Of a stretch of DNA of 35,885 nt, positions 2,102 through 26,849 are shown in pieces. Source of the stretch: a virus. Taxonomy: Duplodnaviria; Caudoviricetes. Within the stretch, counting starts at the first letter, position 1. Each line of letters opens with the position of its first letter. The position numbers were made by a program, and so were the translations under genes. The notes under the pieces are model-generated. The model was not told where the DNA came from and ran no database searches. It saw only the letters and a list, made by a program, of their open reading frames with translations. The stretch is from IMG/VR virus record IMGVR_UViG_3300043414_001406, positions 1 to 35,885 of that record, one strand, 5' to 3'.

Positions 2102-3115
2102 TCAGAAATCCTCTTCAGGTGCCGAAGAGTTAGTGCTAACGTTAGCCTTAGCCGAGTTGGACCACAGATCGACTTCCACATTACCATTACTGGTAACCAT
2201 GGTGAATCGACCGCAGGGAGCATACACCGGATCATACATGTTCTTCAACGTGTACGTACCCTTGTCGTTTTCAATACGCTGCTGCGCACCAGACCAACTG
2301 CTCATCCACTGACGACTCATCTTATTCAGCTCATCAGCACGCTCAGCGGCTTCCTTGATCTTCTTCTGAGACCAATCGTTCTGATTCTCAATAGCAGCTT
2401 TCAACAGGTGCGATTCCTTACGGAGCTTGAGAATGCGAGTGAACTGATCGACTTGAGCATCCAGAAGATTCAAGAAACCCTGAGGAACATCAGGGAACTG
2501 TGCATTACGCGGACTCTTGGAACGGTCCACAGTACCAAGCTCAAACTCGGTAACCGGAACACCTTCCTCATGAGCAAACGCACTCACAATACGCTTCGGA
2601 TTCTTGATGTTGTCGTACACACTCTTAGCACCAGCCTCTTCGAAAGCATCAATAGCCTTCGTATAGCTGTTCCAATTGGCACCAAACTGCTGGAAGAACA
2701 GCGGCATGCCGTCTTCAAAGTTGAAACCAATACGACGCGCAGTGAGCATAAACTCGTCACGACTCATCTTCGAACCAGAAGCTTCCTGAGCGATGTGATG
2801 AAGGAAATCGGTGATGTGAATGGGCGAACCATCAATCATCAACTCCACATCCATCTTGACACCCTTCATGATACCAGTGGCAAGGTAATAGTTACGCTGA
2901 GTCGAAATCTGCTGCTGTTCCAGCATGCTCAAACGAGTGAGGCGAGCCTCATTCAGAGTAACATAGCACGGTACGCTAATACCGTTGATGGTACCCGTAT
3001 AGGGCACACGCTTACCAACCTTGAGGCGAGTACTGCCTGCATTCTGGAACAAATCGTTCTCAGCGAGCGCAGCAAACGCAGTGGTATCAATCTTAAACTT
3101 ATCTAAAATACCCAT
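2102..3115 (-). CDS. Hypothetical protein, 337 aa, with acidic C-terminus (PEEDF)
   Basis: Long ORF with AGGA RBS; no recognisable motif. Confidence 0.85.
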   Translation of the reverse strand: MGILDKFKIDTTAFAALAENDLFQNAGSTRLKVGKRVPYTGTINGISVPCYVTLNEARLTRLSMLEQQQISTQRNYYLATGIMKGVKMDVELMIDGSPIHITDFLHHIAQEASGSKMSRDEFMLTARRIGFNFEDGMPLFFQQFGANWNSYTKAIDAFEEAGAKSVYDNIKNPKRIVSAFAHEEGVPVTEFELGTVDRSKSPRNAQFPDVPQGFLNLLDAQVDQFTRILKLRKESHLLKAAIENQNDWSQKKIKEAAERADELNKMSRQWMSSWSGAQQRIENDKGTYTLKNMYDPVYAPCGRFTMVTSNGNVEVDLWSNSAKANVSTNSSAPEEDF

Positions 3116-3191
3116 AATATAATTCTTCCTGTGTGTAATCGCGGAGTGAAATAGGGACTAAGATTATAGATCCCCTGTTTTTCAGTGTAGC

Positions 3192-3374
3192 TTAGACCTG
3201 ATTATCCTTCTTCACCTTTGCAGGCTTCTCAGGCTTTGCAGGCACCACTTCGCGATACCCTTCGGACAGATTGTGACCAATCTGCTTGAACTTGCTGGTT
3301 GTAGCCTTCGGAGCCACAGTGAGGCCCTTGATCAACTTGCCAGCAAACTTGCCAGTACTCTTTGAAACTTCCAT
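3192..3374 (-). CDS. Small basic hypothetical protein
   Basis: Lys-rich 60-aa ORF with GGAAGGT RBS. Confidence 0.65.
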   Translation of the reverse strand: MEVSKSTGKFAGKLIKGLTVAPKATTSKFKQIGHNLSEGYREVVPAKPEKPAKVKKDNQV

Positions 3375-3428
3375 TGTTACTTACCTTCCTGATTGTTGAT
3401 AATTGTAATAAGAACCGATTTCATCGAT

Positions 3429-3626
3429 TCACCTTTCATGCTGGTCAAGACCGTATTTCACGATCCCCAGTTTTTCACGGTAAACTTCCACGATGCTCTG
3501 AGCCTGTTTGTAATTGGTGCAGGGCAAGTGAAATACAATCGTGTCGCTTTCGCCCCCAGTTGGACTGGCGAAGTTGAACACAACTGAATCATCTTGTGCA
3601 AATACAGCACTGATACTACCTCTCAT
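3429..3626 (-). CDS. Hypothetical protein
   Basis: 65-aa ORF with AAAGGA RBS, directly downstream of a TCTAAATTTTTCTAATAG motif. Confidence 0.7.
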   Translation of the reverse strand: MRGSISAVFAQDDSVVFNFASPTGGESDTIVFHLPCTNYKQAQSIVEVYREKLGIVKYGLDQHER

Positions 3627-3664
3627 TATTTCCTTTCTTGGGTTCTATTAGAAAAATTTAGAGG

Positions 3665-3694
3665 TGAGCAGTTTATAGCACATGCTCAGGTGCT
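3665..3694 (-). ncRNA. H-type pseudoknot motif, copy 1
   Basis: Minus strand AGCAC-C-TGAGCA-T-GTGCT-ATAAAC-TGCTCA. Confidence 0.65.
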
Positions 3695-3699
3695 GTGAA

Positions 3700-3984
3700 T
3701 CAGTTGCTCTTGGCCAACTGTTCGGTGACACGCTTGTATGAGAGATGGGTCCGACGAACCCAACCATACTTGCGTTCAAATGCTTCCAGCTCGTAGTCCG
3801 GAAGATTCTTGTACAGCTTCATATCGTGACCGAAAATGAAGCCACGGAATGCGTCAGCTGACTTGGTAGGAAGCTTGAGTCCATCTTCCTCAACTTTGAC
3901 ACATTCATTGTTGATTTTGTTCTCCAACAGAATTTGCTTGTTGAGCAGATCGTAGAAGCGAGCGGAATGCCGTTCGCGGGCCAT
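3700..3984 (-). CDS. Hypothetical protein (MARERHSARF...)
   Basis: Start moved from 4035 to the ATG at 3984, which follows the RBS GAAAGAGGT; the upstream extension overlaps pseudoknot copy 2. Confidence 0.7.
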   Translation of the reverse strand: MARERHSARFYDLLNKQILLENKINNECVKVEEDGLKLPTKSADAFRGFIFGHDMKLYKNLPDYELEAFERKYGWVRRTHLSYKRVTEQLAKSN

Positions 3985-4017
3985 AATACCTCTTTCATGA
4001 CTATCGAAATGGGTGAA

Positions 4018-4044
4018 TGAGCAGTTTAGACACATACTCAGGTG
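4018..4044 (-). ncRNA. H-type pseudoknot motif, copy 2
   Basis: Minus strand CAC-C-TGAGTA-T-GTG-TCTAAAC-TGCTCA; the U-G wobble works only on the minus strand. Confidence 0.6.
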
Positions 4045-4052
4045 CTTGGAGG

Positions 4053-4196
4053 CTACTGGTCGAGACTCAGCAAGGCTTGCTCCAAGGCCCAGTGCTGACG
4101 TGCAGCTTTTAGCGTTTCACGGCTTGTTGCTGCGGTGCGGATGATTGCGAGCAGATTGGTAGCTTGCTCCGTGAGGTTCCTCTCACGAGTGTCCAT
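4053..4196 (-). CDS. Small hypothetical protein, 47 aa (not in ORF track)
   Basis: AGGAGGT RBS then MDTRERNLTEQATNLLAIIRTAATSRETLKAARQHWALEQALLSLDQ*. Confidence 0.7.
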   Translation of the reverse strand: MDTRERNLTEQATNLLAIIRTAATSRETLKAARQHWALEQALLSLDQ

Positions 4197-4734
4197 GAAT
4201 ACCTCCTATGGTAGGGCATGGTCCCCTGTTTTTCTCCGTAGAGATCTATTCCCGGGCGCTCAACCCCAGCAGAGGCAGTTACCAACTCTGCATACTGGGG
4301 GAGCAACGCCGGGGAGGCTGTGGACAGATTTAACGACATATCCAGGTCTTAATGCATATTTTGTATGCAATGTCAACATGCTTAGATGTTGAACAGGAGA
4401 AAGGGCCAGTTGATAATCAATCTTACTAATCCTCGGGACTGGCTGCTCCGAATCCTTACATTCACCTGCACCATGATGAGTGGTGGGCGGTGCCTTTGCG
4501 GGTTATTCGCGCCTAGGTATCGCGCTAGTACATTGGGCTGATCAACCCTGGCATATAGGCCTTCGGTCTATGTACGTAACCTTAGTGTGAACTATAGTGC
4601 TTTGATCTTATTGTTGCCACACTGACAATAAGATTTCTTATCATACTAGTTGCAACTAGCATGAAGTGCATACCTCCCTAGCAAAGTAGGGAACGCACTA
4701 GGCTTAAATTCTGTTTATAGTCGCCTAGTCGACT

Positions 4735-4986
4735 TCAGTTCGTCTTCAGGAAGTTTTCAATTTCCCTGAGACCGATTATGGTTGTTTGTTCGATGGTCAA
4801 GTTTTCTTTGGCGAAATCGAGCAGCATCAGAGCGAAGGTGCTGACCATCAGCTTTTCGAAGTCAGTTGCTTCGGTTTCATTTTCTTCGAACTGTCCATTC
4901 CACATGGCCAAGACCGAACCGATGATGATTGCGAAATCGGCAGGGATTGGCGCGCTGAACACTGGGATGTTGTTGATGTCGTTCAT
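4735..4986 (-). CDS. Hypothetical protein
   Basis: 83-aa ORF with GAGGAGG RBS. Confidence 0.75.
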   Translation of the reverse strand: MNDINNIPVFSAPIPADFAIIIGSVLAMWNGQFEENETEATDFEKLMVSTFALMLLDFAKENLTIEQTTIIGLREIENFLKTN

Positions 4987-5236
4987 GATAGAAGAGGCCT
5001 CCTCACCCCTGTTTTTCTATCTTGGAGTTCTATTATAAAAATTTAGAACACTGGTGCCCGCAACTCACAATTATCGGCTCGGTTACACCAATGTTCGATT
5101 CAGTTAGGGTATTTTTGGCCCGAGGAAACTGACATCCTTCAAAAGGTGGGGAATGATTCCCCTGTTTTTCTGCATGCATAGGTGCTATTGCAAAAAAAAG
5201 TTTAGAGTCTAGGCTCTATTGAAAAAAATTGGTACA

Positions 5237-5278
5237 CCAGCCAGCCGGATCCCCTTGTGAGGGGGACCCGACTGCTGG
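5237..5278 (-). terminator. GC-rich hairpin after the SSB-like gene
   Basis: CCAGC-CAG-CCGG-ATCCCC...GGGGGACCCG-ACTG-CTGG, followed on the minus strand by a T-run. Confidence 0.6.
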
Positions 5279-5286
5279 CGAGTGGA

Positions 5287-5682
5287 CTACAGGTCCTCTT
5301 CGTCGAAGGGACCTGCGGTGGCCGCGGTGGCCTGCTTGGCGCGGTAGGCGTCAGCATACGCTTTCGCCTGGTCGGAGAACACGACCGTGACCGGCTCCAT
5401 GACCGGCTGGTCCGGCGGCATGACCTCGATGTTACCGCCGAGGAAGAGCTGCTGCTTGGGGACCTTCAACGGGATGACTTCGTTGTTGCGGTCGGTGTAG
5501 GTCTCTTCGACCTTACCCGTGCCGACCTGGGTCACGTTCAGACGCATGCCCGGCACAAGCTGGGCGGCGATGTCGTTGGGCAACCAAGCCCAAGGGCGAA
5601 CACCGTCGTTCTTGACGAACGAGACAACCGTCGACCTCGGGCCGGAACCCCCAATAGCAGCGATGGACAGGACAGTGCTCAT
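5287..5682 (-). CDS. Putative ssDNA-binding (OB-fold-like) protein
   Basis: Beta-rich N-terminal part, Ala/Thr linker, acidic-aromatic tail PFDEEDL; GGAGGT RBS. Function is inferred. Confidence 0.45.
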   Translation of the reverse strand: MSTVLSIAAIGGSGPRSTVVSFVKNDGVRPWAWLPNDIAAQLVPGMRLNVTQVGTGKVEETYTDRNNEVIPLKVPKQQLFLGGNIEVMPPDQPVMEPVTVVFSDQAKAYADAYRAKQATAATAGPFDEEDL

Positions 5683-5729
5683 AATAAACCTCCACGTTTA
5701 GAGCACGAAAGGAACGGCAGAATTACCGT

Positions 5730-5815
5730 CCCCAGTTTTTCTCCCGAAAGAGAACAGGGATAACTCCCCTGTTTTTCTCCCCGAAAAGAACAGAGTGATA
5801 ACACCCCTGTTTTTC
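5730..5815. repeat. Three tandem ~37-bp units containing CCCCTGTTTTTC
   Basis: Cores at 5730, 5766 and 5804; unit CCCC[AT]GTTTTTCTCCC(C)GAAA(G)AGAACAG..GATAAC. Confidence 0.85.
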
Positions 5816-5986
5816 TTCGGTAAAGAAAACTTTAGAATTACCACCAATCTAGAACCTATGGCAACCCCGCTTACAAATTTAGAATTAGGATTCTATCAAT
5901 ATAAAACTTTTAATTATATGACTAAGGTTCTATCTGTATTGAAAAGACTATTACCCAGAATTAGTCTTTTCAACATGTGAGGGCAA

Positions 5987-6031
5987 GGGCCCCCTTCCCG
6001 CAAAGGTGTTACCCTAAGCGGAAAGGGGGCC
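5987..6031 (-). terminator. Hairpin downstream of the RNA polymerase-like gene
   Basis: GGCCCCCTT-CCCGC...GCGG-AAAGGGGGCC. Confidence 0.65.
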
Positions 6032-6045
6032 TAGCCTGAGGTGAG

Positions 6046-8877
6046 TCAGTCGTAGTCCAAAGACTGAGCGAAGCGCATCAGCTCTTCGAACTCATCGTCT
6101 TCGATCTCATCCAACTGGTGGATGACGACTTCCTCGTCGGGGTCTTCGATCTGCGGAATGAGCGGGATGTGCTCTTCCGGAGATTCAAACCCCCAACCTC
6201 GCTGGTGTAGTACGGGGATCAGCATGTCCATGATGGACACGCCGTCACCCTGCTGGAAGACCAGACGGTCATAGCGACCGAGAGGCTTCGTGGAGATGCC
6301 GTGGGCGTTCGGCTTCTCGGGTGTTAGCACGTAGTGCCAGACCGCTAGGGCACGCTGACCGGGCTTGTCAAACCCGTTGAGTTCTGCAACGGCATCGTTG
6401 ATGACGCTGCGGATCTCCGCATGCTTGGATCGCTGCAGGGTAATCTTCTTGAGACCACTGCTGTTGGCGATCACGCCCTTGTACTTGCCGTCCACATTGG
6501 ACAGCTTCGTACTGTAGCGCAGGTAGAACTCGCTTGCCCACGACATGCCCTTGTCGAAGTTGAGCGACTTCACCCACTGCACCACCGGCTGCTGGGAGCG
6601 CATCTGCAGAGTCTTCATCTCCACATTAGCCCAGATCTCCTTGATGGCATCACGATATGCCTCTTGGAAACTGGACAGCTCACCGTCCACAGCGAACTCG
6701 GCAGCCTTCTTCCTGTGCTTACCGGAGAACCGGTTCACAAGATAGCTGTCGACCTGTCCGTTCGTGCACTTCAGTGCAAGCAGTGTCGTTTCCGACGTGG
6801 CTTGTGCTGCAGCGGAGATCTCGTTGAAGATCTTCGGATCGGACAGCTGTTGCGCCCCGTCGACCAACTGTTCGAACGGAACAGTCAGCGACGGAGGCAT
6901 GGACGGCCCCATGGCACCAGCCCAGGCCATGATGGCGTTGGCAACACCACCAATACCTGGGTTCCACTGCTGGGCCAGGATCTGACGCAGAGCATCAGCC
7001 TTGGTCCAGGTAGTGCGGGAGTACGTCAGTGAACCCTGGATGGAGTTCACTTCGATACCCTTCATCTCCTCACCCTGCGGCAATGGCAATGTCGCCAGGT
7101 CGATGACCTCAGCATTGTCGAGGTCCAGGAACTGCCAGGGCAGATCCAGGATGTCATCGATCTCCAGGAAGGAGAATTCTCCGACACCGTTCGGTGACCT
7201 CAACGCCGATGCCACCCACTTGGCTTCGCTGGCCGTGGTGGGAATCATCTCCTTGGGGGAGATGACACCGTTCTCGGCCATCATCGCGGTTACGGTGGGA
7301 TCCGATGACCAGATCCGGCAGAGTTGCAGTTCCACCGAGTCATCGAAATCTGCGCCACCGAGCAGGCCGTAGATCTCCTCGAAACGGTCGTCGGGGATGA
7401 CGATACCGATACCGGGAGCATACCATGCCCTGTTGCCACGATGGTGGGTCTTGTAGTTGCCAACCTTCGTCAGCGAGCCGTGGCTCACGATGAGCATCAC
7501 AGTCGCATTCGACTTCGGCAAATACATGGCTTTGGCGTAGCCCTTGGCCTCGCCATTGTAGTAGCCACCGTCGAACCACTTTGCCATGCGGTTCGCACTG
7601 CCCCCCATCGCCATACGCAGCATGTTCTGAGCTGAACGGATGTCCAACCCAGCTTTCTGCCAGCGCATGATGGCGTTGGCTTCACCCTTGTAGGCCTCGC
7701 GTTCTTCGCCGAGACCTTCTTCGGTGTGGGCTTCGTTGCCCATGAGCAGCCAATCCGGCAGTTCGCCAGACTGGATGGCCTCCATGATCTTGGAGACATA
7801 GGTCTTCAGATCACGGTTCCGGTGGTGATGGGTGAGAATCTGCGGATTCATCACCAACCGCTGGACATCCCATGTCGCCTCGTGAACCGGGTGGTGTTCT
7901 GAGGCGGTGAACATCATGAACTGATCCGTTGGACGGATCTCGCTCTTGATGTTCTCGGGAACGGTGACGATATCATAGCCGTCCATGAACTTGTCAGGAC
8001 GGACGATCATGTCACCCTTGATGAGGCAGCCCATGGGAGCCAGGGCCACCTTGCCTGCCGGAATGAGCAAGCGCGCATTGAAACGCTTGATCTTCCCAGC
8101 TGCGATGAGGTACCGCTGCTTGCGGCGCTCTTCATCGCTAGGGATGAGTTCCGTGGCCTTGAGCATGAAGCTCTTGGACACGTAACTCATGCCATCGCGG
8201 CTGACAGCAGAAAGATCCCTCGGCTGACGGACCTTGATCCGAACAGCTTCGATCTCCTTAGTGTCGTCAGTGTACCAGGCCAGCTTGCTGGTACGAACGA
8301 GCTCATTTGCTCGCTTGGACGACTTCGGGGCATCGATCATCTCGATACCCATTGGTTGCAGCCCCCAACCTTCATGGTCGGGGAACTGGAGGAAGAACGA
8401 GGTTGATGCATTGGCCCAGGCGAACTGGACCTTATCAACCTTCTCCTTCCAGGTGGCGAAGAACTGCTTCTTCTCCATCTCGGTGGCGTTGGCGTCGAAA
8501 TTGATGACGCCATTCTTCACCACGGTGAGACGGAAACGAATGTTCTTCTCTTCCAGCCGTTTCATCAGTAGATACGGCTGCCAATCAGCACCATCGATGG
8601 CCATGAGACCATCGACTGGCATGGCGTCCTTGACGGAAACCATGTACCGATCCTTCTCGGATTGGATGGGATCATTGGTTATGATCCGCACCTCCCCGAA
8701 AACCGGATGCGACTTGAGAAAGGAGATTGTCCTCCCTCTTGGCGTGACCTTGGACTCGGCAACGATCGCTTCCTTCTTCAGGAAGTGAGCCTTGCCATTG
8801 ATCACCACATAGTGGCGACCGTCCTTGGCCACCTTCGTCTGGCTCAGAAGCCAGAAGAAGATGCTGTACGCGAACAT
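6046..8877 (-). CDS. Putative single-subunit two-barrel (DPBB) DNA-dependent RNA polymerase, YonO/eukaryotic-RdRP-like
   Basis: Ordered motifs RDGMSYVS, FNAR...IKGDM...ENIK, GIVIP...LGGADFDD and LRSPN; the size fits; start set at the ATG at 8877 behind GGAGGT. Confidence 0.7.
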   Translation of the reverse strand: MFAYSIFFWLLSQTKVAKDGRHYVVINGKAHFLKKEAIVAESKVTPRGRTISFLKSHPVFGEVRIITNDPIQSEKDRYMVSVKDAMPVDGLMAIDGADWQPYLLMKRLEEKNIRFRLTVVKNGVINFDANATEMEKKQFFATWKEKVDKVQFAWANASTSFFLQFPDHEGWGLQPMGIEMIDAPKSSKRANELVRTSKLAWYTDDTKEIEAVRIKVRQPRDLSAVSRDGMSYVSKSFMLKATELIPSDEERRKQRYLIAAGKIKRFNARLLIPAGKVALAPMGCLIKGDMIVRPDKFMDGYDIVTVPENIKSEIRPTDQFMMFTASEHHPVHEATWDVQRLVMNPQILTHHHRNRDLKTYVSKIMEAIQSGELPDWLLMGNEAHTEEGLGEEREAYKGEANAIMRWQKAGLDIRSAQNMLRMAMGGSANRMAKWFDGGYYNGEAKGYAKAMYLPKSNATVMLIVSHGSLTKVGNYKTHHRGNRAWYAPGIGIVIPDDRFEEIYGLLGGADFDDSVELQLCRIWSSDPTVTAMMAENGVISPKEMIPTTASEAKWVASALRSPNGVGEFSFLEIDDILDLPWQFLDLDNAEVIDLATLPLPQGEEMKGIEVNSIQGSLTYSRTTWTKADALRQILAQQWNPGIGGVANAIMAWAGAMGPSMPPSLTVPFEQLVDGAQQLSDPKIFNEISAAAQATSETTLLALKCTNGQVDSYLVNRFSGKHRKKAAEFAVDGELSSFQEAYRDAIKEIWANVEMKTLQMRSQQPVVQWVKSLNFDKGMSWASEFYLRYSTKLSNVDGKYKGVIANSSGLKKITLQRSKHAEIRSVINDAVAELNGFDKPGQRALAVWHYVLTPEKPNAHGISTKPLGRYDRLVFQQGDGVSIMDMLIPVLHQRGWGFESPEEHIPLIPQIEDPDEEVVIHQLDEIEDDEFEELMRFAQSLDYD

Positions 8878-9004
8878 AACTACCTCCAGTAGTATGCTCA
8901 TTCGCATAGCGTTATACTATGCTGCTCTTGATTTTGTTCTGTGATCGCTTATGTCACAGACCGGATTTGAACCGGAGGCTGCTAGCCTTATAGGCGCTAA
9001 GGGC

Positions 9005-9018
9005 CTATCCATAAAAAA
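9005..9018 (-). promoter_or_regulatory. TTTTATGGATAG motif upstream of the polymerase-like gene
   Basis: ctatccataaaa at 9005; variant TTTTACAGATAG at 9039-9050. Confidence 0.7.
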
Positions 9019-9057
9019 CTAATTTAATAATTAGAGTTCTATCTGTAAAAGGGGGAG

Positions 9058-9085
9058 TGAGCAGTTTCGCGACATGCTCAGGTCG
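9058..9085 (-). ncRNA. H-type pseudoknot motif, copy 3
   Basis: Minus strand CGAC-C-TGAGCA-T-GTCG-CGAAAC-TGCTCA; P1 covaries with copy 1. Confidence 0.65.
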
Positions 9086-9092
9086 ATGGGTG

Positions 9093-9359
9093 TTACTTGC
9101 GGTGCTGCGGGCAGCGGGACTGACCGCTCACCTCGGTGATGGTGCCGGTCCACCGGTGGGTGGAGCGGGACCACTTTCCGTTTTCCTGCGCCCAGGTGAC
9201 GCAGTTGACGGTGACCATCCGATCGATGATCATGGTCTTGGTCTTGGTATCATCAGACACTTTGACCATTTTCCCAGTAAGGCTGTTTTGCTTGGCGTAC
9301 GTGATCGCCTCAAGAAGATTAGCAGCCTCAAAGATCGTATTGCCGATCTTGTATTTCAT
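9093..9359 (-). CDS. Hypothetical protein
   Basis: 88 aa, GGAGG RBS. Confidence 0.8.
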   Translation of the reverse strand: MKYKIGNTIFEAANLLEAITYAKQNSLTGKMVKVSDDTKTKTMIIDRMVTVNCVTWAQENGKWSRSTHRWTGTITEVSGQSRCPQHRK

Positions 9360-9407
9360 GGTGTCCTCCAGACACTGGATAGCAGCCTCAGGTTTAAGGC
9401 TAGGGAT

Positions 9408-9460
9408 CTATCCATAAAAGAGTTCCCCCAGGACCGAAGTCCCAGGGGAATTACTCTTTT
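9408..9460 (-). promoter_or_regulatory. Hairpin + TTTTATGGATAG element
   Basis: Minus strand AAAAGAGTAATTCCCCTGGGAC-TTCG-GTCCTGGGGGAACTCTTTT-ATGGATAG. Confidence 0.8.
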
Positions 9461-9698
9461 ACCCCTGACAGCCGCAGGGGTCATTTGGCTTTTCGGCGTT
9501 GTATCCAGCCGAGATCAATGCCTTGATCTCTGCTAGAGTGAGCCGAAAAGCCAGCTGTTCTGGAGCGGTCGGTTTTGGCCTGTTGGCCTGACGCAACCGC
9601 CCCTGGACATGAAAGTTGCCGTGGTTAGGGCAACCGTCACGTCCGACTGTTCTCTGGCACGGATTGCCAGAGGTGGTGTTGGTTGATAGACATTTCAT
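9459..9698 (-). CDS. Small Cys/His putative Zn-binding protein
   Basis: KCLSTNTTSGNPCQRTVGRDGCPNHG (C-C-C-H); AAGGAGGTGA RBS. Confidence 0.8.
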   Translation of the reverse strand: MKCLSTNTTSGNPCQRTVGRDGCPNHGNFHVQGRLRQANRPKPTAPEQLAFRLTLAEIKALISAGYNAEKPNDPCGCQG

Positions 9699-9726
9699 TG
9701 TTCACCTCCTTTAAGTGACTAAATCT

Positions 9727-9780
9727 CTATCATTAAAAGAGTTTCCCCGAAGACTGAAATCCCCGGGGAATAACTCTTTT
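9727..9780 (-). promoter_or_regulatory. Hairpin + TTTTAATGATAG element
   Basis: AAAAGAGTT-TCCCCG...CGGGGA-ATAACTCTTTT adjacent to the motif variant. Confidence 0.8.
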
Positions 9781-9843
9781 ACCGTTTCTGTTCCCAAGCT
9801 ACGGTAGCTCGGCCCCACATGTCGGGAGCCAGGTGGCCATCTA

Positions 9844-9999
9844 TCACGCGACGTAGTAGTGGTAGAAGTCTGATGTCATCTTGACACCAAGCTTCCTCAC
9901 TCGCTTGGTCACGCGACGGCACTGCCTGTGACTGAGGGCCTGATTTGTATCAGGATCAATCAACGACATGGCAGCTCGGGCCGCATGGAAATTGGACAT
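9844..9999 (-). CDS. Small basic hypothetical protein (MSNFHAARAA...)
   Basis: ATG at 9999 behind AAGGAGGTGA. Confidence 0.75.
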   Translation of the reverse strand: MSNFHAARAAMSLIDPDTNQALSHRQCRRVTKRVRKLGVKMTSDFYHYYVA

Positions 10000-10027
10000 T
10001 TTCACCTCCTTTCTAAAGGCTAGAGAT

Positions 10028-10073
10028 CTATCCATAAAAGAGTTACCCCTTAGTTGCCCAAGGGATAACTCTT
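10028..10073 (-). promoter_or_regulatory. Hairpin + TTTTATGGATAG element
   Basis: AAGAGTTA-CCCCTT...AAGGGA-TAACTCTT next to ctatccataaaa. Confidence 0.8.
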
Positions 10074-10127
10074 CTTATTTATGTCAGCACTTAGTGTAGG
10101 GACATGTGCCAGACCCTTGTCCTCCTG

Positions 10128-10361
10128 CTAGGGGAGGAGGATTATTGCACCCACAGGAATTGATCCTGCGGGATAGGTGTTGACCTCCATGAGACGAAAT
10201 ACCGCCTCCTGAGGGTTGGTACAATGGCCAGCTGCGATGCTGGAGTAGGTGTCACCCGACTGGGCAACAACCTGTGGTGCATCGCACACCACCTCAGTAT
10301 TGTGCTTGCACGCGGCAAACACAAAGCCAAACAATGCCATAATGGCGAGGAAATACCTCAT
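10128..10361 (-). CDS. Small LysM-domain lipoprotein
   Basis: Signal peptide with lipobox-like FAAC, then VVAQSGDTYSSIA...LMEVN...IPVGAIILLP (LysM consensus). Confidence 0.75.
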   Translation of the reverse strand: MRYFLAIMALFGFVFAACKHNTEVVCDAPQVVAQSGDTYSSIAAGHCTNPQEAVFRLMEVNTYPAGSIPVGAIILLP

Positions 10362-10400
10362 ATTACTTGTCCTCCTTGTGGACTAATAGACCCCAATGGT

Positions 10401-10457
10401 CTATCCATAAAAGGGTTTCCCCTCACTACACTGGATGTGTAGCAAGGGGAGTCCCTT
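10401..10457 (-). promoter_or_regulatory. Hairpin + TTTTATGGATAG element
   Basis: AAGGG..TCCCCT-CACTACAC-TGGAT-GTGTAG-CA-AGGGGA..CCCTT. Confidence 0.8.
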
Positions 10458-10612
10458 CAGTCCTGAAGAAGGTTGTATGCCTCCTGGAGGAGGCTCTGGG
10501 CCTCCAGGATCTGATACGACAGGTCGCCCTGTCGCACTTTGAGTAGGGCTTGTTGAGCCCTACTCATTGTTGAGATGGCCTGCGAGATCTCGTGGAGCAG
10601 GTCCTCATTCAT
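10457..10612 (-). CDS. Small helical hypothetical protein (MNEDLLHE...)
   Basis: ATG at 10612 behind GGAGGTG; the longer track ORF reads through the regulatory element. Confidence 0.75.
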   Translation of the reverse strand: MNEDLLHEISQAISTMSRAQQALLKVRQGDLSYQILEAQSLLQEAYNLLQD

Positions 10613-10664
10613 GACAATGCACCTCCAGTGCATGGATAGCGGTCTCAGGTTTGAGACCAGGAAA

Positions 10665-10720
10665 CTATCCATAAAAGGGGTTGCCCCCACTACACTGGAT
10701 GTGTAGCAGGGGCTGCCTTT
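10665..10720 (-). promoter_or_regulatory. Hairpin + TTTTATGGATAG element
   Basis: Shares the 21-mer CACTACACTGGATGTGTAGCA with the 10401 element. Confidence 0.8.
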
Positions 10721-10721
10721 G

Positions 10722-11168
10722 TTAGACGAAGTCGCCACCTTCGTCATCTTCCTCCTCTTCTGGAGGAGGAGAGAAGATCGCCATCAAGGCGAGGATCGGA
10801 AAACCGATCTCCTCACCCCCAATGGCGTCTTCTGCCAGTGGCCACGGCGGTGTTACCTCCGTAGCCATCTGGTGCTCCACCCCCCACCAGGAGGGAGTAA
10901 CCTCCATTGACAGGAGGTCATCCGCGAAGATGCGGATCTTACCTCCTGTCAGCAGAAGCTCTTCCACCTCCTTCCTGGAGTAGGGGTAGATGACCTGTCC
11001 CCACTCCGAGGGAAGGTCGGCGGCGATTACCACCTTCCCTTCCGGAAGGTAGCTGCTCGTCACCTTTTGCCCCCACAACAGGATGGAGGCAACGTCTTCA
11101 CCTTCCCAGGTGATGACGACCTCCTTCTTGCTATGGTTGTCGAAGATGGTTGTCTGGCTGTTGTTCAT
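10722..11168 (-). CDS. Acidic hypothetical protein
   Basis: ATG at 11168 behind GGAGGT; acidic tail EEEEDDEGGDFV. Confidence 0.8.
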   Translation of the reverse strand: MNNSQTTIFDNHSKKEVVITWEGEDVASILLWGQKVTSSYLPEGKVVIAADLPSEWGQVIYPYSRKEVEELLLTGGKIRIFADDLLSMEVTPSWWGVEHQMATEVTPPWPLAEDAIGGEEIGFPILALMAIFSPPPEEEEDDEGGDFV

Positions 11169-11233
11169 GACTACCTCCAGTAGCATGATTGATGCGCACA
11201 GCGTTGTTGCTGTACGACTAGATGGCCATAGGC

Positions 11234-11295
11234 CTATCCATAAAAAAGGTACCCCTTCCCAGAATCCGAAGATCCTAGGAAGGGGTATTCTTTTT
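11234..11295 (-). promoter_or_regulatory. Hairpin + TTTTATGGATAG element
   Basis: AAAAAAG-GTACCCCTTCC...GGAAGGGGTAT-TCTTTTT with a cUUCGg loop on the minus strand. Confidence 0.8.
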
Positions 11296-11297
11296 AC

Positions 11298-12212
11298 TCA
11301 GTTGCAGATCACCTGCTGCAGCCCAGCGATATCGCCAGGCAGGTACTTACCATACGAGTAATCGCTCTCGTATGACATGATGCTCTGGACCTGCTCGCCC
11401 TCTGCATCATGGGTGTGATCCAGGCCCATGAGGTGACCCATCTCATGCAGGATAATGTGGGTATGGTTAGCCCAGTCATCCTGCACAGACGGATCCACTG
11501 CAAGGGTGGCATCCTGGATATGCAGAGACACACCGAGGAAGGTACTGCTACCTGCGACATTTATCTGCATTTCTGCTACATGTAGTTCGGGCAAATCCCG
11601 CTCAACAACAGGAACCACCCAATCCGTTTCAGTGGGGACATAGCTGCTGTCCACTACCTGTACACCCATGTGGGTATACTGGTTGAACAGGGCAATGTCG
11701 CCCATGAAATCATCATACTTGGAATCCATAGGGAGATTCCACTGCATGACGACATGGTTGTCCACCATGGTTTCCCACGGGATCTCAACCATGCTACCAT
11801 CCTCCATGGGGAACATGGTAGCAGTGTATTCACTGCTGTTGGTGTACGTATCGCACACGTACTCAGCAGTAACGGGTGCCACCGTGGTAGTTGTTTCTTC
11901 TACCATAGCAGCGGTGACTTCTGCTACAGTAGTGGTGCTTTCTTCCACCATGGTAGTAGTAGTCTCCTCCACCATGGTGGTGATGGTGGGGAGGACGTTG
12001 CTGGTAGCAGCGGTGTCATTGCTGCTAAGGACAATGGTGGCACCAATGATGCCAACAATGATGATCGCCATAGCAATCACGGTCATGACGATACGGTTCC
12101 ACATGGGAACCATAACTGCCCTGTAGTCGTTGGTATAGATCGGTTCATATGTGAACGGATCCATGCCGATTTGACGGCGGGCGATGACCTTGTATTCCTT
12201 CTTGAAGAACAT
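11298..12212 (-). CDS. Membrane-anchored metzincin zinc metalloprotease (matrixin-like)
   Basis: TM helix IVMTVIAMAIIIVGIIGATIVL, Thr/Glu-rich linker, HEMGHLMGLDH (HExxHxxGxxH) and Met-turn SIMSY; ATG at 12212 behind AAAGGA. Confidence 0.85.
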   Translation of the reverse strand: MFFKKEYKVIARRQIGMDPFTYEPIYTNDYRAVMVPMWNRIVMTVIAMAIIIVGIIGATIVLSSNDTAATSNVLPTITTMVEETTTTMVEESTTTVAEVTAAMVEETTTTVAPVTAEYVCDTYTNSSEYTATMFPMEDGSMVEIPWETMVDNHVVMQWNLPMDSKYDDFMGDIALFNQYTHMGVQVVDSSYVPTETDWVVPVVERDLPELHVAEMQINVAGSSTFLGVSLHIQDATLAVDPSVQDDWANHTHIILHEMGHLMGLDHTHDAEGEQVQSIMSYESDYSYGKYLPGDIAGLQQVICN

Positions 12213-12484
12213 TGTTATTCCTTTGATACGCGCGTAAGCGTGGGTTGGTTGATAATGAGTGACAAGTGCTGAACACCAAAGCCCCATACCCGGGTGGGCA
12301 TGTTAAAGGTTAGGAGCGCAACATATACTCACTATTACCGGCTTGTATTTTTTTCTGGTTTTTTCCCTTATATGGCTTTTATATGTTTATACATGTTGTT
12401 GTTCTTTTTTTATTCTTTTATTATTTTTTTTTTATATGTTTATATGGCCCGCTTGTTTTTTTCTTTTTTTTGTTCTTGGTTGTC

Positions 12485-12514
12485 TTGATTTTTCTTTTTT
12501 GTTCTGTGTATGAT
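12485..12514 (+). promoter_or_regulatory. Possible sigma70-type promoter
   Basis: TTGATT-18 nt-TATGAT, with TGTG immediately before the -10 box. Confidence 0.4.
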
Positions 12515-12564
12515 CTGTGAACCGGGCGAATTTGGTCGCCGGGAATAAACAACGTTAGGATGCC

Positions 12565-12774
12565 GTGGTGAATACTTTTGTAGATTGTCCGTCGTGTGGT
12601 TCTGAGTTCATCGTTGATGAAGAGATTATGTCTTCCAATCTTCGATGCCCTGATTGCTTACAGTGGGTATCTAGCTATAGTGACGATAATGATCGTTTGT
12701 TTGTGTCTGCATATGCGGTCCGCTTTGATGATCATTTTGAAGACTATGGTTATGAGTCAGGGTATGATTACTGA
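12565..12774 (+). CDS. Zn-ribbon protein with acidic tail
   Basis: CPSC...CPDC. Confidence 0.7.
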   Translation: MVNTFVDCPSCGSEFIVDEEIMSSNLRCPDCLQWVSSYSDDNDRLFVSAYAVRFDDHFEDYGYESGYDY

Positions 12775-13455: not shown

Positions 13456-13617
13456 TCATTCTATATCATTTTTTAAAAAATTTTCTGGGAATTCCTCCCA
13501 GTAGTCGCCACAGTCACGGCACTCAAAACACATTATGTCTTCGCCGTTCTCTTTCACAGCTTGCGTGATAATGTGTGGTGGAAAAGTTTCGCAACTAGGA
13601 CACAGATTATCTAACAT
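13456..13617 (-). CDS. Small Zn-ribbon protein, 53 aa (not in ORF track)
   Basis: MLDNLCPSCE...FECRDCGDYWEE; TAATG overlap with the recA stop. Confidence 0.7.
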   Translation of the reverse strand: MLDNLCPSCETFPPHIITQAVKENGEDIMCFECRDCGDYWEEFPENFLKNDIE

Positions 13618-14663
13618 TACTTCGCCTTAATCATTTCTATTACCTCTGGAAGATCTTTCAATTTTTGAATAGCATTATCGCGGCCTTGAGCAAAATTCTC
13701 ACCATTAAAATACACCCAAGCACCCTTCTGAGTAAACAGCCCCTTATCGATAGCAGTATCGAAAAGACAACCATACTCGTCAATACCAGTACCATAAAGA
13801 ATGTCAAATTCTACAATTTTCATTGGAGGAGCCATTTTATTCTTAATAATTTTAGCCTTCACCTTCATACCGGTCGGCTCACCAGACTTGTCCTTCAAAT
13901 CTTCCTTCTTACGAACATCTATGCGCACAGAGGAGTAAAACTTGAGAGACATACCACCAGGGGTGGTTTCTGGATTTCCGAACATGATACCGATTTTATT
14001 TCTCAGCTGATTAATGAAAATTATCAGCGTATTATGCTGAGATGCAAGACCGGTCAGCTTACGAAGAGCTTTCGCCATCATTCTCGCTTGCAATCCCATG
14101 TGTGCCTGCTCCATTTCGCCATCCAACTCGGCTTTCGGAACCAGTGCAGCCACAGAATCAATGACGATAACTCCAATTTCACCAGTACGCAGCAATCTGT
14201 CAGCAATGTCGATACCCTGTTCACCATAATCAGGTTGAGCTAGATATAAATTATCCAGATCCACACCCAAGTCTTGCATGTAGACCGGATCTAGCGAGTG
14301 CTCAGCATCGATGTAAACGCAACTTAGCCCCATCTGCTGAGCCTTAGCCACTGTTGACAGTGCAATGGTCGATTTGCCGGATGACTCTGGTCCATAGATC
14401 TCTACAACGCGACCTCGTGGTAATCCGCCAATCCCAAGAGCAGTATCTAGTGTGAGCGCACCTGTTGGAATAGACTCCCATGCTTTAATGTTTGTTGTGC
14501 CCAAACGCATCACTGCGCCTGATCCGTACTGGCGTTGTAGCTGGGCTACAGCAATCTCTAACGCCTTCGATTCGTCCTTAACGGTCTTTAGTGGCTTCTT
14601 GTTTTCGGATGGCTCAGAGGGCAAAATCTCGCCTGTTTCATAATCTATATTTTCATCTATCAC
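13617..14663 (-). CDS. recA: Recombinase RecA
   Basis: GGLPRGRVVEIYGPESSGKS (Walker A), IVIDSVAAL, FINQLR..IG.MFGNPETTPGG, KNKMAPP. Confidence 0.97.
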   Translation of the reverse strand: MIDENIDYETGEILPSEPSENKKPLKTVKDESKALEIAVAQLQRQYGSGAVMRLGTTNIKAWESIPTGALTLDTALGIGGLPRGRVVEIYGPESSGKSTIALSTVAKAQQMGLSCVYIDAEHSLDPVYMQDLGVDLDNLYLAQPDYGEQGIDIADRLLRTGEIGVIVIDSVAALVPKAELDGEMEQAHMGLQARMMAKALRKLTGLASQHNTLIIFINQLRNKIGIMFGNPETTPGGMSLKFYSSVRIDVRKKEDLKDKSGEPTGMKVKAKIIKNKMAPPMKIVEFDILYGTGIDEYGCLFDTAIDKGLFTQKGAWVYFNGENFAQGRDNAIQKLKDLPEVIEMIKAK

Positions 14664-14983: not shown

Positions 14984-15002
14984 TGAGAAAATCCTTTTAA
15001 AA

Positions 15003-15033
15003 TGGTATAATAATCTACATGTCATTATACATT
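15003..15033. promoter_or_regulatory. Facing -10 boxes between divergent genes
   Basis: TGGTATAAT on + (15003-15011) and TGTATAAT on - (15024-15031). Confidence 0.5.
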
Positions 15034-15044
15034 AAGGAGTTTTT

Positions 15045-15203
15045 ATGGGCAAGTCGAAAAAGGAGAATGACGAGTTAAATCTGGCAATCTACCTTCTTAA
15101 AACAAGATTCAATTGTCCAGGTGATCTTGTCAAGTACTGGGCGTTCTCAGGCCCATGCCTAGAGGCACATCCTAGCATAGAAGATTATTCTAGAAAAGGT
15201 TGA
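15045..15203 (+). CDS. Small hypothetical protein, 52 aa (not in ORF track)
   Basis: AAGGAG RBS then MGKSKKENDELNLAIYLLK... Confidence 0.65.
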   Translation: MGKSKKENDELNLAIYLLKTRFNCPGDLVKYWAFSGPCLEAHPSIEDYSRKG

Positions 15204-15355
15204 TTTAACTTGATTCGATGTGATAAGCTTGTATTGCGCCCCCCTTCCCCCCTTCCCCCTTTACTATATACTTATATAGTTAATATATACTCTTATATAT
15301 ATACGTATACTAATATTATTCTATATAAGAATATAGGCAAATTTTAGGAGGCCGC

Positions 15356-16777
15356 ATGCAGATCTATCAAATTTTTATACCCGAACTACATGCGAACGTT
15401 AAATTTAAAGTTGTTGCTGCTTCCGAAGCAGAAGAGTTTCTTAGTAAGCACAAGAATAATAAAGATTTGAAACAAGATATCTTAAAATATGTTGTTTATA
15501 ATTTAAATACTGAAGTAGCTTCATCTTTAACCATGATGTCACGTTTAGCAGCTGAACGAGCGCTAGAAGCGGTATACGCTGGGTGTATAATGTTAAATCC
15601 ATCTCTTGATATTGATTATTGGTTAAATATCGCATATTCAACAGCGCCAGTAAATCCTGATCCAGTAGATGATGATTTTAACCTTGATCAGATTAAAAAT
15701 TTTATAAAGTCATCAGTTACCAAGAATGCTGTAGCTAAAAAGGCAGCTGCAAAGAACGTTGAGCCTAAAACTAAGAAACTTTCTAAAGAAAAGTTCTTAA
15801 GTTTGGAAACGTATTTAAAATCAACTATAATAGGCCAGGATGAAGCGATAGATGAACTAGTATCTGCCTTGTTTAGGTCACAGGCTGGACTTCACGACCA
15901 AACACGACCACTAGGAGTGTTTTTATTTGCTGGATCATCTGGAGTTGGTAAAACTCACTTAGCTAACACTCTGCACAAATATATTTTTGGCGAAGAAACT
16001 CACATGGTTAGAATTGATTGTGGAGAGTTTCAACACAAACATGAAAATCAAAAACTTCTAGGATCACCTCCAGGATATGTTGGACATGACGATGGAGGTC
16101 AACTCACTAATCAGATAAGAAAAAATCCTTATTCAGTTGTGCTGATAGATGAAGTAGAAAAAGCCCACCAAGATATTTGGAATACATTTTTAAGAATATT
16201 TGACGAAGGTATGGTAACAGACTCTAAAGGTGAAGTTGTAGATTTTAGAAATACAATTATTATTATGACAACAAATTTAGGTAATGATAAAATTGTAGAT
16301 AGTCTTATAGCAACAAGTGCAGGATTCACACAGAATGTGGTTTTTAATAGGTCTACTACTAAAATTCCATCACGTTCAGTGGTCGAAAAGGCTACTAATG
16401 AAGCTATCAACAAATACTTCCGTCCAGAGTTCTTAAACAGAATAGATAAGGTTGTTGTTTTTAATCATCTCACTAGAGAAAATTGCGAGAAGATAGCTGA
16501 ACTTGAAATGTCGGTTATTGCAACTAAGCTTTCTAAAAAGGGAATATCACTTCAATACAGCGAACAAGCAATTGGTGCCTTGATTGATCGCGGGATTGAT
16601 ACTATTCGTGGCGCACGAGGAATCTCCCAGGTTAGAAGAGATATTTTAGAAACGCCTATGGCAAAGTTAATTGTTAACACATATATACCTAAAGGTACTA
16701 TATTCCATATAGATTATATTAATGATGGTTTTGTTTTTGATATTACAAAACCAACAAAAAAAATAAAATCAGTATAA
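15356..16777 (+). CDS. ClpA/B/C-family AAA+ ATPase with only the D2 module
   Basis: IIGQDEAI, RPLGVFLFAGSSGVGKT, LLGSPPGYVGHDDGGQLT, VVLIDEVEKAH, FRPEFLNRID, GARGI. Confidence 0.92.
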   Translation: MQIYQIFIPELHANVKFKVVAASEAEEFLSKHKNNKDLKQDILKYVVYNLNTEVASSLTMMSRLAAERALEAVYAGCIMLNPSLDIDYWLNIAYSTAPVNPDPVDDDFNLDQIKNFIKSSVTKNAVAKKAAAKNVEPKTKKLSKEKFLSLETYLKSTIIGQDEAIDELVSALFRSQAGLHDQTRPLGVFLFAGSSGVGKTHLANTLHKYIFGEETHMVRIDCGEFQHKHENQKLLGSPPGYVGHDDGGQLTNQIRKNPYSVVLIDEVEKAHQDIWNTFLRIFDEGMVTDSKGEVVDFRNTIIIMTTNLGNDKIVDSLIATSAGFTQNVVFNRSTTKIPSRSVVEKATNEAINKYFRPEFLNRIDKVVVFNHLTRENCEKIAELEMSVIATKLSKKGISLQYSEQAIGALIDRGIDTIRGARGISQVRRDILETPMAKLIVNTYIPKGTIFHIDYINDGFVFDITKPTKKIKSV

Positions 16778-16824
16778 TTTTTATATGAATTATTAAACTT
16801 TCAATTAACTAACATGGAGCGACT

Positions 16825-17859
16825 ATGTTCGGAAATAAATATAAAGGAATGTCTGTTATAGATAGTTCCGGTATGGAAAGAGATCTTTCTAGAAGAGGTA
16901 GATTTAAAGGTTCAGCAAGAGTTGATGCACGTCGTGGCCTGGGTTCAATGGAAGGCTCAGTGGGCGCCTCTTCTGGTGGGTCAGGTGGTTTTATGTCTGG
17001 GCTTGGTAGGAGAATGTCTTCGGCTAGATCTACTGTTGGTGAAGGATTCGGTAACGCGTCTAGAAGAGCATATTTTGGTGGAACTAATATGATGAATTCT
17101 ACTGAAGAGGGAATCAGATCTGGAGCTGGAAGAGTAAGGCAAGGGTTCGGAGGGGCATTTAATATTAATATGGAAGGCTTTGGGGCCACCAGTGGAGTAG
17201 CTACCCGCAACCCGATGCAAAGAGCTATAGGTGCTGGCTCTAGCGCTAGAACTAGCGCTAGAGCGCCACTGGCTCTTGGTGCTGGTCCCAGTGTCAGCCC
17301 TAGGGCACCACTAGCTCTTAGCTCCGGTGCTTCAACGGTGGCTTCTGAAGCCGGAAAAGCTAGAAAAGGCTTCAGGGGTAGAATGAAAGGCCTATTTGAT
17401 GTTAACATGGAAGGTTTTGGGGCCACTAGCGGAGTTGCCACACGTCACCCGATGCAAAAAGCTATAGGCCCTGGTTCTAGGAATTCAGTTTTTCCCCCAC
17501 CAAATGTAGCTGGAAGACAATTTCCCCCACCAAATGCAGCTGGCAGACAATTAGCCCCACCAAATTTAGCTACTCGTAGACCTGGCCCAATTATGGCTCG
17601 CCCAAATGTAGCTACTCGTAAACCTGGTCCAATTATGACTCGCCCTAATTTAGCTACTAAGGTAGAAATGGCTCCTCCTAAAGCGCTTAATGCCGCTATC
17701 GAAGGTGACAAGGGTAAAAATCTTGGAAAACTTATGGAACACATGAAGGGTAATCCAAAAGCCTACGCAATTGGAGCAGGAGTAGTAGGCTTAGGGGCTC
17801 TGCTTCATGGTAGGGAAAAAAGAGGAACTTCTTCAGGTGCACAAGGAATGTATAGATAA
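16825..17859 (+). CDS. Gly/Arg/Pro-rich repeat protein with a C-terminal hydrophobic helix (putative virion protein)
   Basis: Duplicated NMEGFGATSGVATRxPMQxAIG block, PPN/RPN repeats, AYAIGAGVVGLGALL. Confidence 0.7.
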   Translation: MFGNKYKGMSVIDSSGMERDLSRRGRFKGSARVDARRGLGSMEGSVGASSGGSGGFMSGLGRRMSSARSTVGEGFGNASRRAYFGGTNMMNSTEEGIRSGAGRVRQGFGGAFNINMEGFGATSGVATRNPMQRAIGAGSSARTSARAPLALGAGPSVSPRAPLALSSGASTVASEAGKARKGFRGRMKGLFDVNMEGFGATSGVATRHPMQKAIGPGSRNSVFPPPNVAGRQFPPPNAAGRQLAPPNLATRRPGPIMARPNVATRKPGPIMTRPNLATKVEMAPPKALNAAIEGDKGKNLGKLMEHMKGNPKAYAIGAGVVGLGALLHGREKRGTSSGAQGMYR

Positions 17860-17876
17860 TAGATAGGTGTAATGTT

Positions 17877-18296
17877 ATGAATGATTGGAAAAAATTTACA
17901 GATGTTAATGGTGATTTTCAGTTAGCAAATTTTCTTTATAAAAGTATCAGTGATTTAATGAAACATTCTTTAGATATGGGAACATTACTTTCTACTGATC
18001 AAGCTAAACTTAGGGCATATAAAGAGCAAACTAAAAAACTTTTTAAAACTAAATGGTTTGAAGTAGCTCAAGCTTTAGAATTTTTTGATATTATTGAAAG
18101 ATGTGTTTGTTATTCTGAAACTCAAGAAAAGTATTGTGATATTTGTAAGGGTTCTAGATTTAAGTTAACTTCATATTTAACTTCTGATGAAGTTCATGAG
18201 ATTGGCGTTTTTTATAATGCTGTCCAAAACGCTGATGTTGCAGAAAAGATTCAGAAACAACTTATGCGGGCATTGGATGAGTTGTCCGAGGTGTGA
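17877..18296 (+). CDS. Hypothetical protein with CxC...CxxC
   Basis: CVC...CDICKG. Confidence 0.8.
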   Translation: MNDWKKFTDVNGDFQLANFLYKSISDLMKHSLDMGTLLSTDQAKLRAYKEQTKKLFKTKWFEVAQALEFFDIIERCVCYSETQEKYCDICKGSRFKLTSYLTSDEVHEIGVFYNAVQNADVAEKIQKQLMRALDELSEV

Positions 18297-18447
18297 TGCA
18301 ACTACGCAAATAGTTAGTGAATATTATAATTTTAACGAAAAAAGTTTTGTTAGAGATACTATTTGTGTTAATTGCAATAGTGCTACTGTGGAAAAATTTT
18401 ATGAAGATAGCACCTATAGATCTGAATGGATTGATTTAAATGTCTGA
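18277..18447 (+). CDS. Small Zn-ribbon protein
   Basis: MSCPRC...CVNC; start moved to the internal ATG at 18277. Confidence 0.6.
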   Translation: MSCPRCDATTQIVSEYYNFNEKSFVRDTICVNCNSATVEKFYEDSTYRSEWIDLNV

Positions 18448-19138: not shown

Positions 19139-19141
19139 TAG

Positions 19142-22726: not shown

Positions 22727-22729
22727 ATT

Positions 22730-24984: not shown

Positions 24985-24987
24985 TGT

Positions 24988-26841: not shown

Positions 26842-26849
26842 GGATTTTT

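Follow-up and report, generated by a model that had tools for sequence, protein, structure and literature searches.

The virus record IMGVR_UViG_3300043414_001406 was analyzed over its whole length of 35,885 nucleotides (nt), referred to here as the window, with the focus on a minus-strand gene, R1, which a first-pass annotation had read from the DNA letters as a divergent single-chain two-barrel RNA polymerase (RNAP) of the YonO/RdRP kind within a phage early block. The 35.9-kb window also encodes a terminase, tail fibres, RecA, and a Clp-type ATPase. All of the motifs on which that reading was built (RDGMSYVS, FNAR, IKGDMIV, ENIK, GIVIP, LGGADFDD, and LRSPN) lie inside one minus-strand open frame, which at its longest covers positions 6046-8907 and 953 codons. 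A start at the eleventh codon (Met11) is likelier, as GGAGG stands 5 nt before it and both the closest homologues and the Atlas record of R1 begin there. Residue numbers follow the frame of 953 amino acids (aa); the models, the 137-sequence alignment, and the covariation analysis count from Met11 (add 10). The gene context bears out the placement of R1 in an early-type block, and the expectation that routine annotation would overlook the gene also proved right: Pfam, PHROGs, and NCBIfam searches with R1 gave no match, and its two closest viral structure models are "uncharacterized" proteins of uncultured phages.

Evidence for the nature of R1 comes from its predicted fold. An AlphaFold2 model built on 85 family sequences reached a predicted local distance difference test score (pLDDT) of 90.8 and a predicted template modeling score (pTM) of 0.86; the ESM Atlas model, at a pTM of 0.17, was unusable. 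With the AlphaFold2 model as the query, every listed Foldseek match at an E value of 0.001 or below was RDR2 (2.7e-7), QDE-1 (1e-6 to 2e-5), or P74-26 gp62 and P23-45 gp64 (2-3e-5), with gp96 and phi14:2 gp66 ranking next, weakly. Similarly, VIA-align against 48,161 chains placed single-chain two-barrel polymerases in its top six rows (Z 10.9 to 6.4), and a second VIA alignment gave RDR2 a Z of 12.3 over 602 aligned residues at a root mean square deviation (rmsd) of 8.0. Cellular RNAPs were not among the strong rows of these searches, which is not an exclusion. The single-chain two-barrel polymerase proposed at the outset is thereby recovered, and on these models we regard the fold as nearly certain. 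The basic barrel (model residues 196-326) aligns to a VCP-like double-psi beta-barrel (DPBB) over 81 of 90 residues (Z 3.6), and so one of the two DPBBs foreseen in the first-pass annotation is found; the metal-binding barrel, aligned over only about 50 residues, is a more complex case that is taken up below.

Residues of R1 can be paired with those of QDE-1 on the basis of motif, order, and spacing, not of measured distances. In this pairing, R671, D709, R738, K743, and K767 of QDE-1 correspond to R199, D238, R279, K297, and K321 of R1, and R962-x-P964, the Asp triad, and V1115-D1116 are matched by R570-x-P572, D520/D522/D523, and V682-D683. The 24 residues between K297 and K321 are identical to the K743-K767 distance, and R199-D238 (39) compares with 38 for R671-D709. 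By motif and order, V682-D683 is likely the trigger-loop VD, and D520, D522, and D523 are predicted to bind Mg. In QDE-1, R962-x-P964 reads the 2'-OH, and R962 together with D1116 holds the ribose hydroxyls (PMC9508822); as the counterparts of both residues are retained in R1, RNA synthesis is favored. It is very likely, in our view, that R1 is an active DNA-dependent RNA polymerase.

Conservation across the family points in the same direction. A word search returned 23 homologues of R1 (25-95% identity), and a profile of these, run against 1.84 billion representatives, brought up 263 clusters at E<=0.001, of which 150 were listed. In an alignment of 137 sequences, from which fragments, the longest fusion proteins, and some near-duplicate sequences had been removed, D520, D522, D523, R570, P572, and D683 are invariant; conservation is at least 90% at K195, K198, R199, D238, G239, R279, K297, G298, K321, and Q349. 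Many of these homologues are only about 20% identical to R1. The Asp residues of DFDD and the KG and DG motifs singled out in the first-pass annotation hold up among homologues. PDB sequence searches with R1 as a single protein or with profiles gave no supported match, and a tail-tube hit (E 0.003, residues 48-127) was rejected since neither profiles nor fold support a tail-tube. Neither R1 nor R2, the second paralogue present in relatives, was found by tblastn in 50,697 phage records, and a pattern scan of GTDB genomes returned one 5-kb contig of a metagenome-assembled genome and hence no evidence for cellular members. In a set of 27 listed members, selected chiefly by length, fusions to Pif1 helicase (five members; N-terminal in P0070, P0075, P0118, P0125, and P0171), NADAR (three; N-terminal in P0043 and P0128), and DUF4326 (two) were seen; a Pfam search found no helicase domain in R1 itself. 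Residues 1-200 of P0024 may form a 2-oxoglutarate-Fe oxygenase-like region, judged by eye and without a library match. The N-terminal 50 residues of R1 recur as a stand-alone small open reading frame (ORF) at 854-1183 of L198 (57% over 49 aa), and a weak match to them (E 0.02) lies about 11.2 kb upstream of R2 in the related genome G010, where R1 is missing.

The metal-binding barrel departs from what has been described for this enzyme class. Published accounts treat DxDxD and eight residues as invariant and call the metal barrel well conserved (PMC2919709; bioRxiv 2022.12.01.518664), with R962 of the QDE-1 RxP motif preceding D1007 of the Asp loop (PMC2919709). Two departures of R1 from this pattern went unremarked in the first-pass annotation. 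R1 has DFDD, one residue short, and the Asp loop reads DxDD in 128 of the 137 homologues and DxDGD, with a Gly inserted, in the other nine. RxP follows the Asp loop by 22-67 residues throughout the alignment, whereas YonO, gp64, and QDE-1 place it ahead; some RxP does occur within 70 residues upstream of the loop in 32 homologues, but without a conserved column. In the model, the region runs through strands 468-475, 494-497, and 501-504, a helix, DFDD, strand 524-533, an insert, strand 563-569, RSPN, and strand 579-581. With the standard DPBB strand names b1-b6, this order would suggest b1-b2-b5-a2-loop-b6-b3-RxP-b4, that is, a b3-b4 hairpin moved behind b6.

Covariation across 185 sequences (effective 143) is consistent with such an arrangement. 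The top pair, G517-E577 (z 11.4), connects the RSPNxxGE hairpin to the Asp loop, and further pairs include L516-S579, the b1-b6 ladder V470-E526 and L472-S524, and A566-I583 within the hairpin; from these, the displaced RxP hairpin probably remains packed on the Asp loop. The hairpin would then have moved behind the Asp-loop strand yet occupy its usual place, with one of the two psi crossings lost. Folded alone, the metal barrel reached a pLDDT of 94.7. It spanned Sec18, NSF, CDC48, and a symmetric designed DPBB end to end with only model residues 18-81 or 18-86, about 50 residues being aligned in its first four strands and the RxP hairpin left out. A simple half circular permutation is disfavored, as the gap between Asp loop and RxP can be as short as 22 residues and the symmetric DPBB, which should match fully, aligned over only 50 of 86 residues. 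Foldseek with the metal barrel alone gave no match below an E value of 1. The proposed order is tempered by several points: the DPBB comparison is weak, its matches all lying at Z 3.1 or below against 2.2-2.3 for unrelated clamps; a QDE-1 row spans residues 12-163 of the metal-barrel model with 72 aligned; and the strands were assigned from secondary structure, alignment ranges, and covariation, not from model coordinates. On balance, a rewired metal barrel appears likely.

Comparison with characterized enzymes places R1 in context. Its best fold matches are QDE-1 of Neurospora (PDB 2J7N, 7Y7P-T; VIA Z about 10, rmsd 5.2-5.7, about 600 residues aligned) and plant RDR2 (7W82, 7W84), with which it shares a single chain, the basic barrel placed first, and the catalytic counterparts. 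It differs from both in sequence (10-12% identity), in being a phage gene and not one of RNA silencing, and in its DxDD loop, the RxP after that loop, and a Gln in place of K1119. The non-virion (gp64) and virion (gp96) RNAPs of Thermus phage P23-45 (8F72, 8F5M, 8H2M/N) have a similar fold, with VIA rows at Z 9.9 (rmsd 5.0, 401 aligned), 9.5 (7.8, 463), and 8.2 (4.5, 314). The regulatory logic is also alike: in P23-45, the virion polymerase transcribes pre-early genes including that of the non-virion polymerase, which lies inside the block of the first of two motif classes, and the two motifs represent two promoter classes (bioRxiv 2022.12.01.518664). P23-45 has two polymerases, however, and the R1 phages up to three; the profile probability of R1 against gp64, a single-sequence template, is 0.2%; gp64 has RRP before DYDGD; and DPBB-A is called well conserved in all structures compared in that study, unlike the metal barrel of R1.

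SPbeta YonO, a single-chain phage polymerase of similar size, has DG, KG, RSP, and an Asp triad like R1, but in the canonical order RSP...DNDGD, and it transcribes late genes (PMC5467207), whereas R1 sits in an early-type block. The label YonO/RdRP-like therefore holds loosely by fold and not by sequence: the R1 profile against the single YonO sequence gave an hhalign probability of 0.14% (E 0.41), the RNA-dependent RNA polymerase (RdRP) family PF05183 of Pfam matched neither R1 nor 30 family members, and the motif order differs. A YonO-related tblastn search of the same 50,697 phage records found no match. [quoted passage not shown] Taken together, the models suggest that R1 works like a phage two-barrel RNA polymerase, while membership in the YonO, RdRP, or gp64 families is not shown by sequence or profile. 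The literature searched, mostly without subscription papers, contained no account of the R1 family, of a permuted barrel, or of a phage with three polymerases of this kind; the family could already be included in the 23 families of Chaban et al. or in Iyer and Aravind 2012.

When R1 is placed into its genomic context, a candidate promoter becomes apparent. The word GAAAAACWGGGG (class B) is present in eight copies in the window, against 0.05 expected, all downstream of R1, and in several copies directly abuts a ribosome-binding site. Tandem class B pairs occupy the corresponding place in relatives, where copies are also found just upstream of R2. Its form varies by lineage (GAAAAACAGGGG, GAAAATAGGGG, GAATAAGTCGG, and AAAGAAGGG), the GAAAAAC form of the window being common to the five closest loci with downstream DNA (two near-identical). 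Class B-type words occur 4-9 times in sense and 0-2 times in antisense in 11 of 11 R1-bearing stretches, and once, never, and never in three lineages that have R2 but no R1; this count left out G021, which shows its own word, AAAGAGGGG. Blind motif searches in R1-less genomes returned other words, and one in G024 contains TATAGT, which we take to resemble a host -10 element. As class B tracks the presence of R1, it is probable, going by this comparison of sequences, that R1 reads it. The first gene of the class B block possibly encodes a single-strand DNA-binding protein (SSB), and its homologues follow R1 in four close loci. Among 65 intergenic segments, no third word for the late arm came up.

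A different word, TTTATGGATAG (class A), is present in six copies in the window, where 0.01 would be expected; these stand without exception on the minus strand, between 11244 and 9005, and the final copy precedes R1. In 11 of 13 genomes, TTTATGRNTAG-type words are clustered upstream of R1, and most of the genome-wide copies fall inside the block upstream of R1 (16/19 in G006, 11/11 in G018, and 19/22 in G020). The 42 nt preceding class A sites (n=104) are terminator-like, with a mean of -18.0 kcal/mol against -6.6 for shuffled sequence, and the TAG end opens a hairpin more stable than shuffled in 97 of the 104. Sigma-70-type sites in 2900-12700 are at chance level (10 against 8.5 expected). 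It could be speculated, with about an even chance of being right, that class A is read by a virion-type paralogue of R1. A comparable cascade is known from coliphage N4, in which a virion polymerase is followed by an early-made polymerase with an SSB partner and the early promoters contain hairpins; the N4 polymerases have a T7-like fold and are unrelated to the two-barrel enzymes.

Relatives of the window, whose contigs are syntenic with it, are roughly 200-kb phages carrying WhiB. The detection of WhiB in 5/5 complete relatives and of sigma-70 region 2 in 0/5 points to actinobacterial hosts, and sequencing-run labels point to a freshwater origin, with the two best-matching runs possibly the source; no RNA run carrying the sequence was among the runs listed. 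The conserved R2 lies usually 11-16 kb downstream of R1 and forms its own clade in a FastTree phylogeny that gave long-branch warnings and did not include the virion-type paralogues. The window stops short of where R2 would begin, and R2 was not seen in it. A third paralogue, among the giant ORFs of the structural arm, shows a 310-column alignment to the family (probability 98.4%, E 1e-14) and retains DG, R, K, K, GGFDLDD, and RQP; its position and size suggest that it is packaged in the virion. All three paralogues are present in 9 of 12 records that are at least 90% complete; of the others, G007 and G009 break off about 10 kb upstream of R2, and R1 is missing from the examined stretch of G014. 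The virion-type gene forms a single frame of 1,200-2,000 codons in certain genomes and is split into neighboring ORFs in others (examples are G003, at 34727-36991 and 32335-34623, G006, G011, and G013).

From these observations, we consider it likely on the whole that R1 is an early-made DNA-dependent RNA polymerase that transcribes the downstream genes from GAAAAACWGGGG. The virion-type paralogue or the host enzyme would fire the terminator-plus-promoter cassettes of class A, and the last cassette would drive R1. R1, binding Mg via D520/D522/D523 and nucleoside triphosphates via K297/K321 and selecting ribonucleotides through R570, would then start at or near the G-run of class B and express the SSB-like protein, other middle genes, and, in relatives, R2. 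The simplest such scheme would be a relay like that of P23-45, from virion to non-virion polymerase. Several observations weigh against it. The trigger-loop Lys/His (K1119 in QDE-1) is replaced by Gln in R1. G008 and G021 have no class A, and G014 and G019 have none or a single copy, though all four have the virion-type gene, which weakens the link between the two. R1 is absent from an intact RecA-to-R2 interval in G010, G019, and G014/G024 and so is dispensable there, and WhiB could redirect the host enzyme. Finally, the class B pattern was built from R1-bearing genomes and is partly circular, with only three R1-less lineages examined. We put forward only tentatively, at slightly less than even chances, the broader proposal that a widespread lineage of freshwater actinobacterial phages of about 200 kb runs a relay of three paralogous single-chain polymerases (virion, early, and later), each with its own promoter, on a metal barrel that has lost the double-psi topology and the DxDxD spacing regarded as universal for cell-type RNA polymerases, in which R1 would be a modular middle step that is gained, lost, and diverging with a 12-base promoter.

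The same data can be read in other ways. R1 might be active but read class A, and so amplify itself, or some other signal, with class B serving as a promoter for host RNAP/WhiB or for R2, or as a translation element acting at the RNA level. That class A directly precedes R1 in most genomes and is absent or single in G019 and G014/G024, all without R1, would fit this, as would WhiB in all five relatives and the A-rich character of class B, often beside a ribosome-binding site. Yet G010, without R1, keeps 10 copies of a class A variant, G008 and G021 carry R1 in the absence of class A, class B disappears together with R1 even where R2 is retained, and three forms of class B occur in five genomes whose R2 proteins fall into a single tight clade, so that we find this reading unlikely. 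An R1 with another job, as a primase-like replication enzyme or an RNA-templated polymerase like RDR2, could be suspected from its best structural matches, the RNA interference polymerases, and from the Pif1 fusions in 5 of 27 members. It seems improbable, given that R1 itself is without a helicase domain, that a gene-upstream class B word tracks it, and that its phage relatives by fold (gp64, gp96, gp66, and YonO) are DNA-dependent RNA polymerases (bioRxiv 2022.12.01.518664; PMC5467207; bioRxiv 2020.03.07.982082). Finally, the short loop and displaced RxP could point to a polymerase that has lost catalysis and is retained as a DNA-binding regulator, in line with the described invariance of DxDxD (PMC2919709), the missing trigger-loop basic residue, and the loss of R1 in some lineages. 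With the three Asp residues, R570, P572, and D683 invariant even among distant homologues and kept in all three paralogue types, and nine members retaining DxDGD in the same frame, this is very improbable.

A rewired barrel in the R1 family would have wider implications. The active site of cellular RNA polymerase has been regarded as fixed wiring, with double-psi barrels and RxP followed by DxDxD; if the proposal is true, at least 263 clusters carry all catalytic residues on a reordered metal barrel with a short loop, and the ancient site tolerates rewiring, which bears on the origin of the barrel. The genome comparison additionally points to a candidate promoter for this compact enzyme of 943 aa. 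Promoter recognition is left open for YonO (PMC5467207) and gp66 (bioRxiv 2020.03.07.982082) in these reports, and the class B variants make recognition by single-chain two-barrel polymerases directly testable and could yield orthogonal polymerase-promoter pairs.

Table 1. Positions of R1, its predicted functional elements, and the surrounding words and genes in the window
Feature	Position	Strand	Remarks
R1, single-chain two-barrel RNA polymerase gene (predicted)	6046..8877	-	943 aa from Met11 of the 953-aa frame
Ribosome-binding site GGAGG	8883..8887	-	5 nt ahead of ATG at 8877
Basic barrel (DPBB-B)	7900..8292	-	D238-G239, R279, K297, K321; R199 just upstream
Metal-binding barrel (DPBB-A-like), likely rewired strand order	7159..7506	-	From model, separate fold, and covariation
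DFDD catalytic loop (D520, D522, D523)	7339..7350	-	Invariant in 137 sequences
RSPN, Pro-gate RxP, downstream of Asp loop	7189..7200	-	R570 and P572 invariant
V682-D683, likely trigger-loop VD (QDE-1 V1115-D1116)	6859..6864	-	D683 invariant
Three tandem class B words GAAAAACWGGGG	5730..5815	-	Between R1 and next gene
Five more class B words	3172, 3465, 4223, 5006, 5159 (3172..5170)	-	Downstream of R1
131-aa ORF, acidic tail, possible SSB	5287..5682	-	First class B-block gene; Atlas Phage_SSB cluster 0.88; models with oligonucleotide-binding (OB) fold, TM about 0.5
337-aa conserved ORF of class B block	2102..3115	-	Between R1 and R2 in relatives; no confident family match
Class A word TTTATGGATAG	9005..9015	-	Directly upstream of R1
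Five more class A words	9408, 10028, 10401, 10665, 11234 (9408..11244)	-	Each behind a terminator-like hairpin, before a small ORF
Class A variant	9727-9737	-	Likewise behind a terminator-like hairpin, before a small ORF

Further features were noted along the window. G+C content is 52-58% in the polymerase block (6000-12000) and mostly 31-45% in the structural arm (15000-35000). At the junction of the arms, a bacterial-type RecA gene (13617-14663, minus strand) and a Clp-type AAA+ ATPase gene (15356-16777, plus strand) stand back to back, likewise in the relatives examined. The first left-arm gene after an AT-rich gap (11298-12287, minus strand) is a 329-aa ORF that has a membrane-like segment and, at its C-terminus, a metzincin-type motif, and a 1,194-aa structural-arm ORF (19142-22726, plus strand; about 27% identity in relatives) has a weak DEDDh exonuclease-like segment at residues 190-350.

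A repeated element, CCTGAGYATG..AAACTGCTCA, is located just after stop codons at about 9055-9082, 4015-4042, and 3665-3690 (minus strand) and likewise in G001, G013, L201, and L203; the two copies scanned had no Rfam match at E<=5. About 600 nt directly upstream of R2 in G016 (L185, about 10790-11400) hold at least 15 AATGAATCA units with a period of 37-38 nt and variable spacers, and G013 holds six AATGAATCA words; the array is possibly an origin or a small-RNA array. Within the class B block of the window, a full-length Pistol ribozyme (Rfam RF02679, 65.5 bits) occupies 4668-4734 on the minus strand and begins at the stop codon of an 83-aa ORF.

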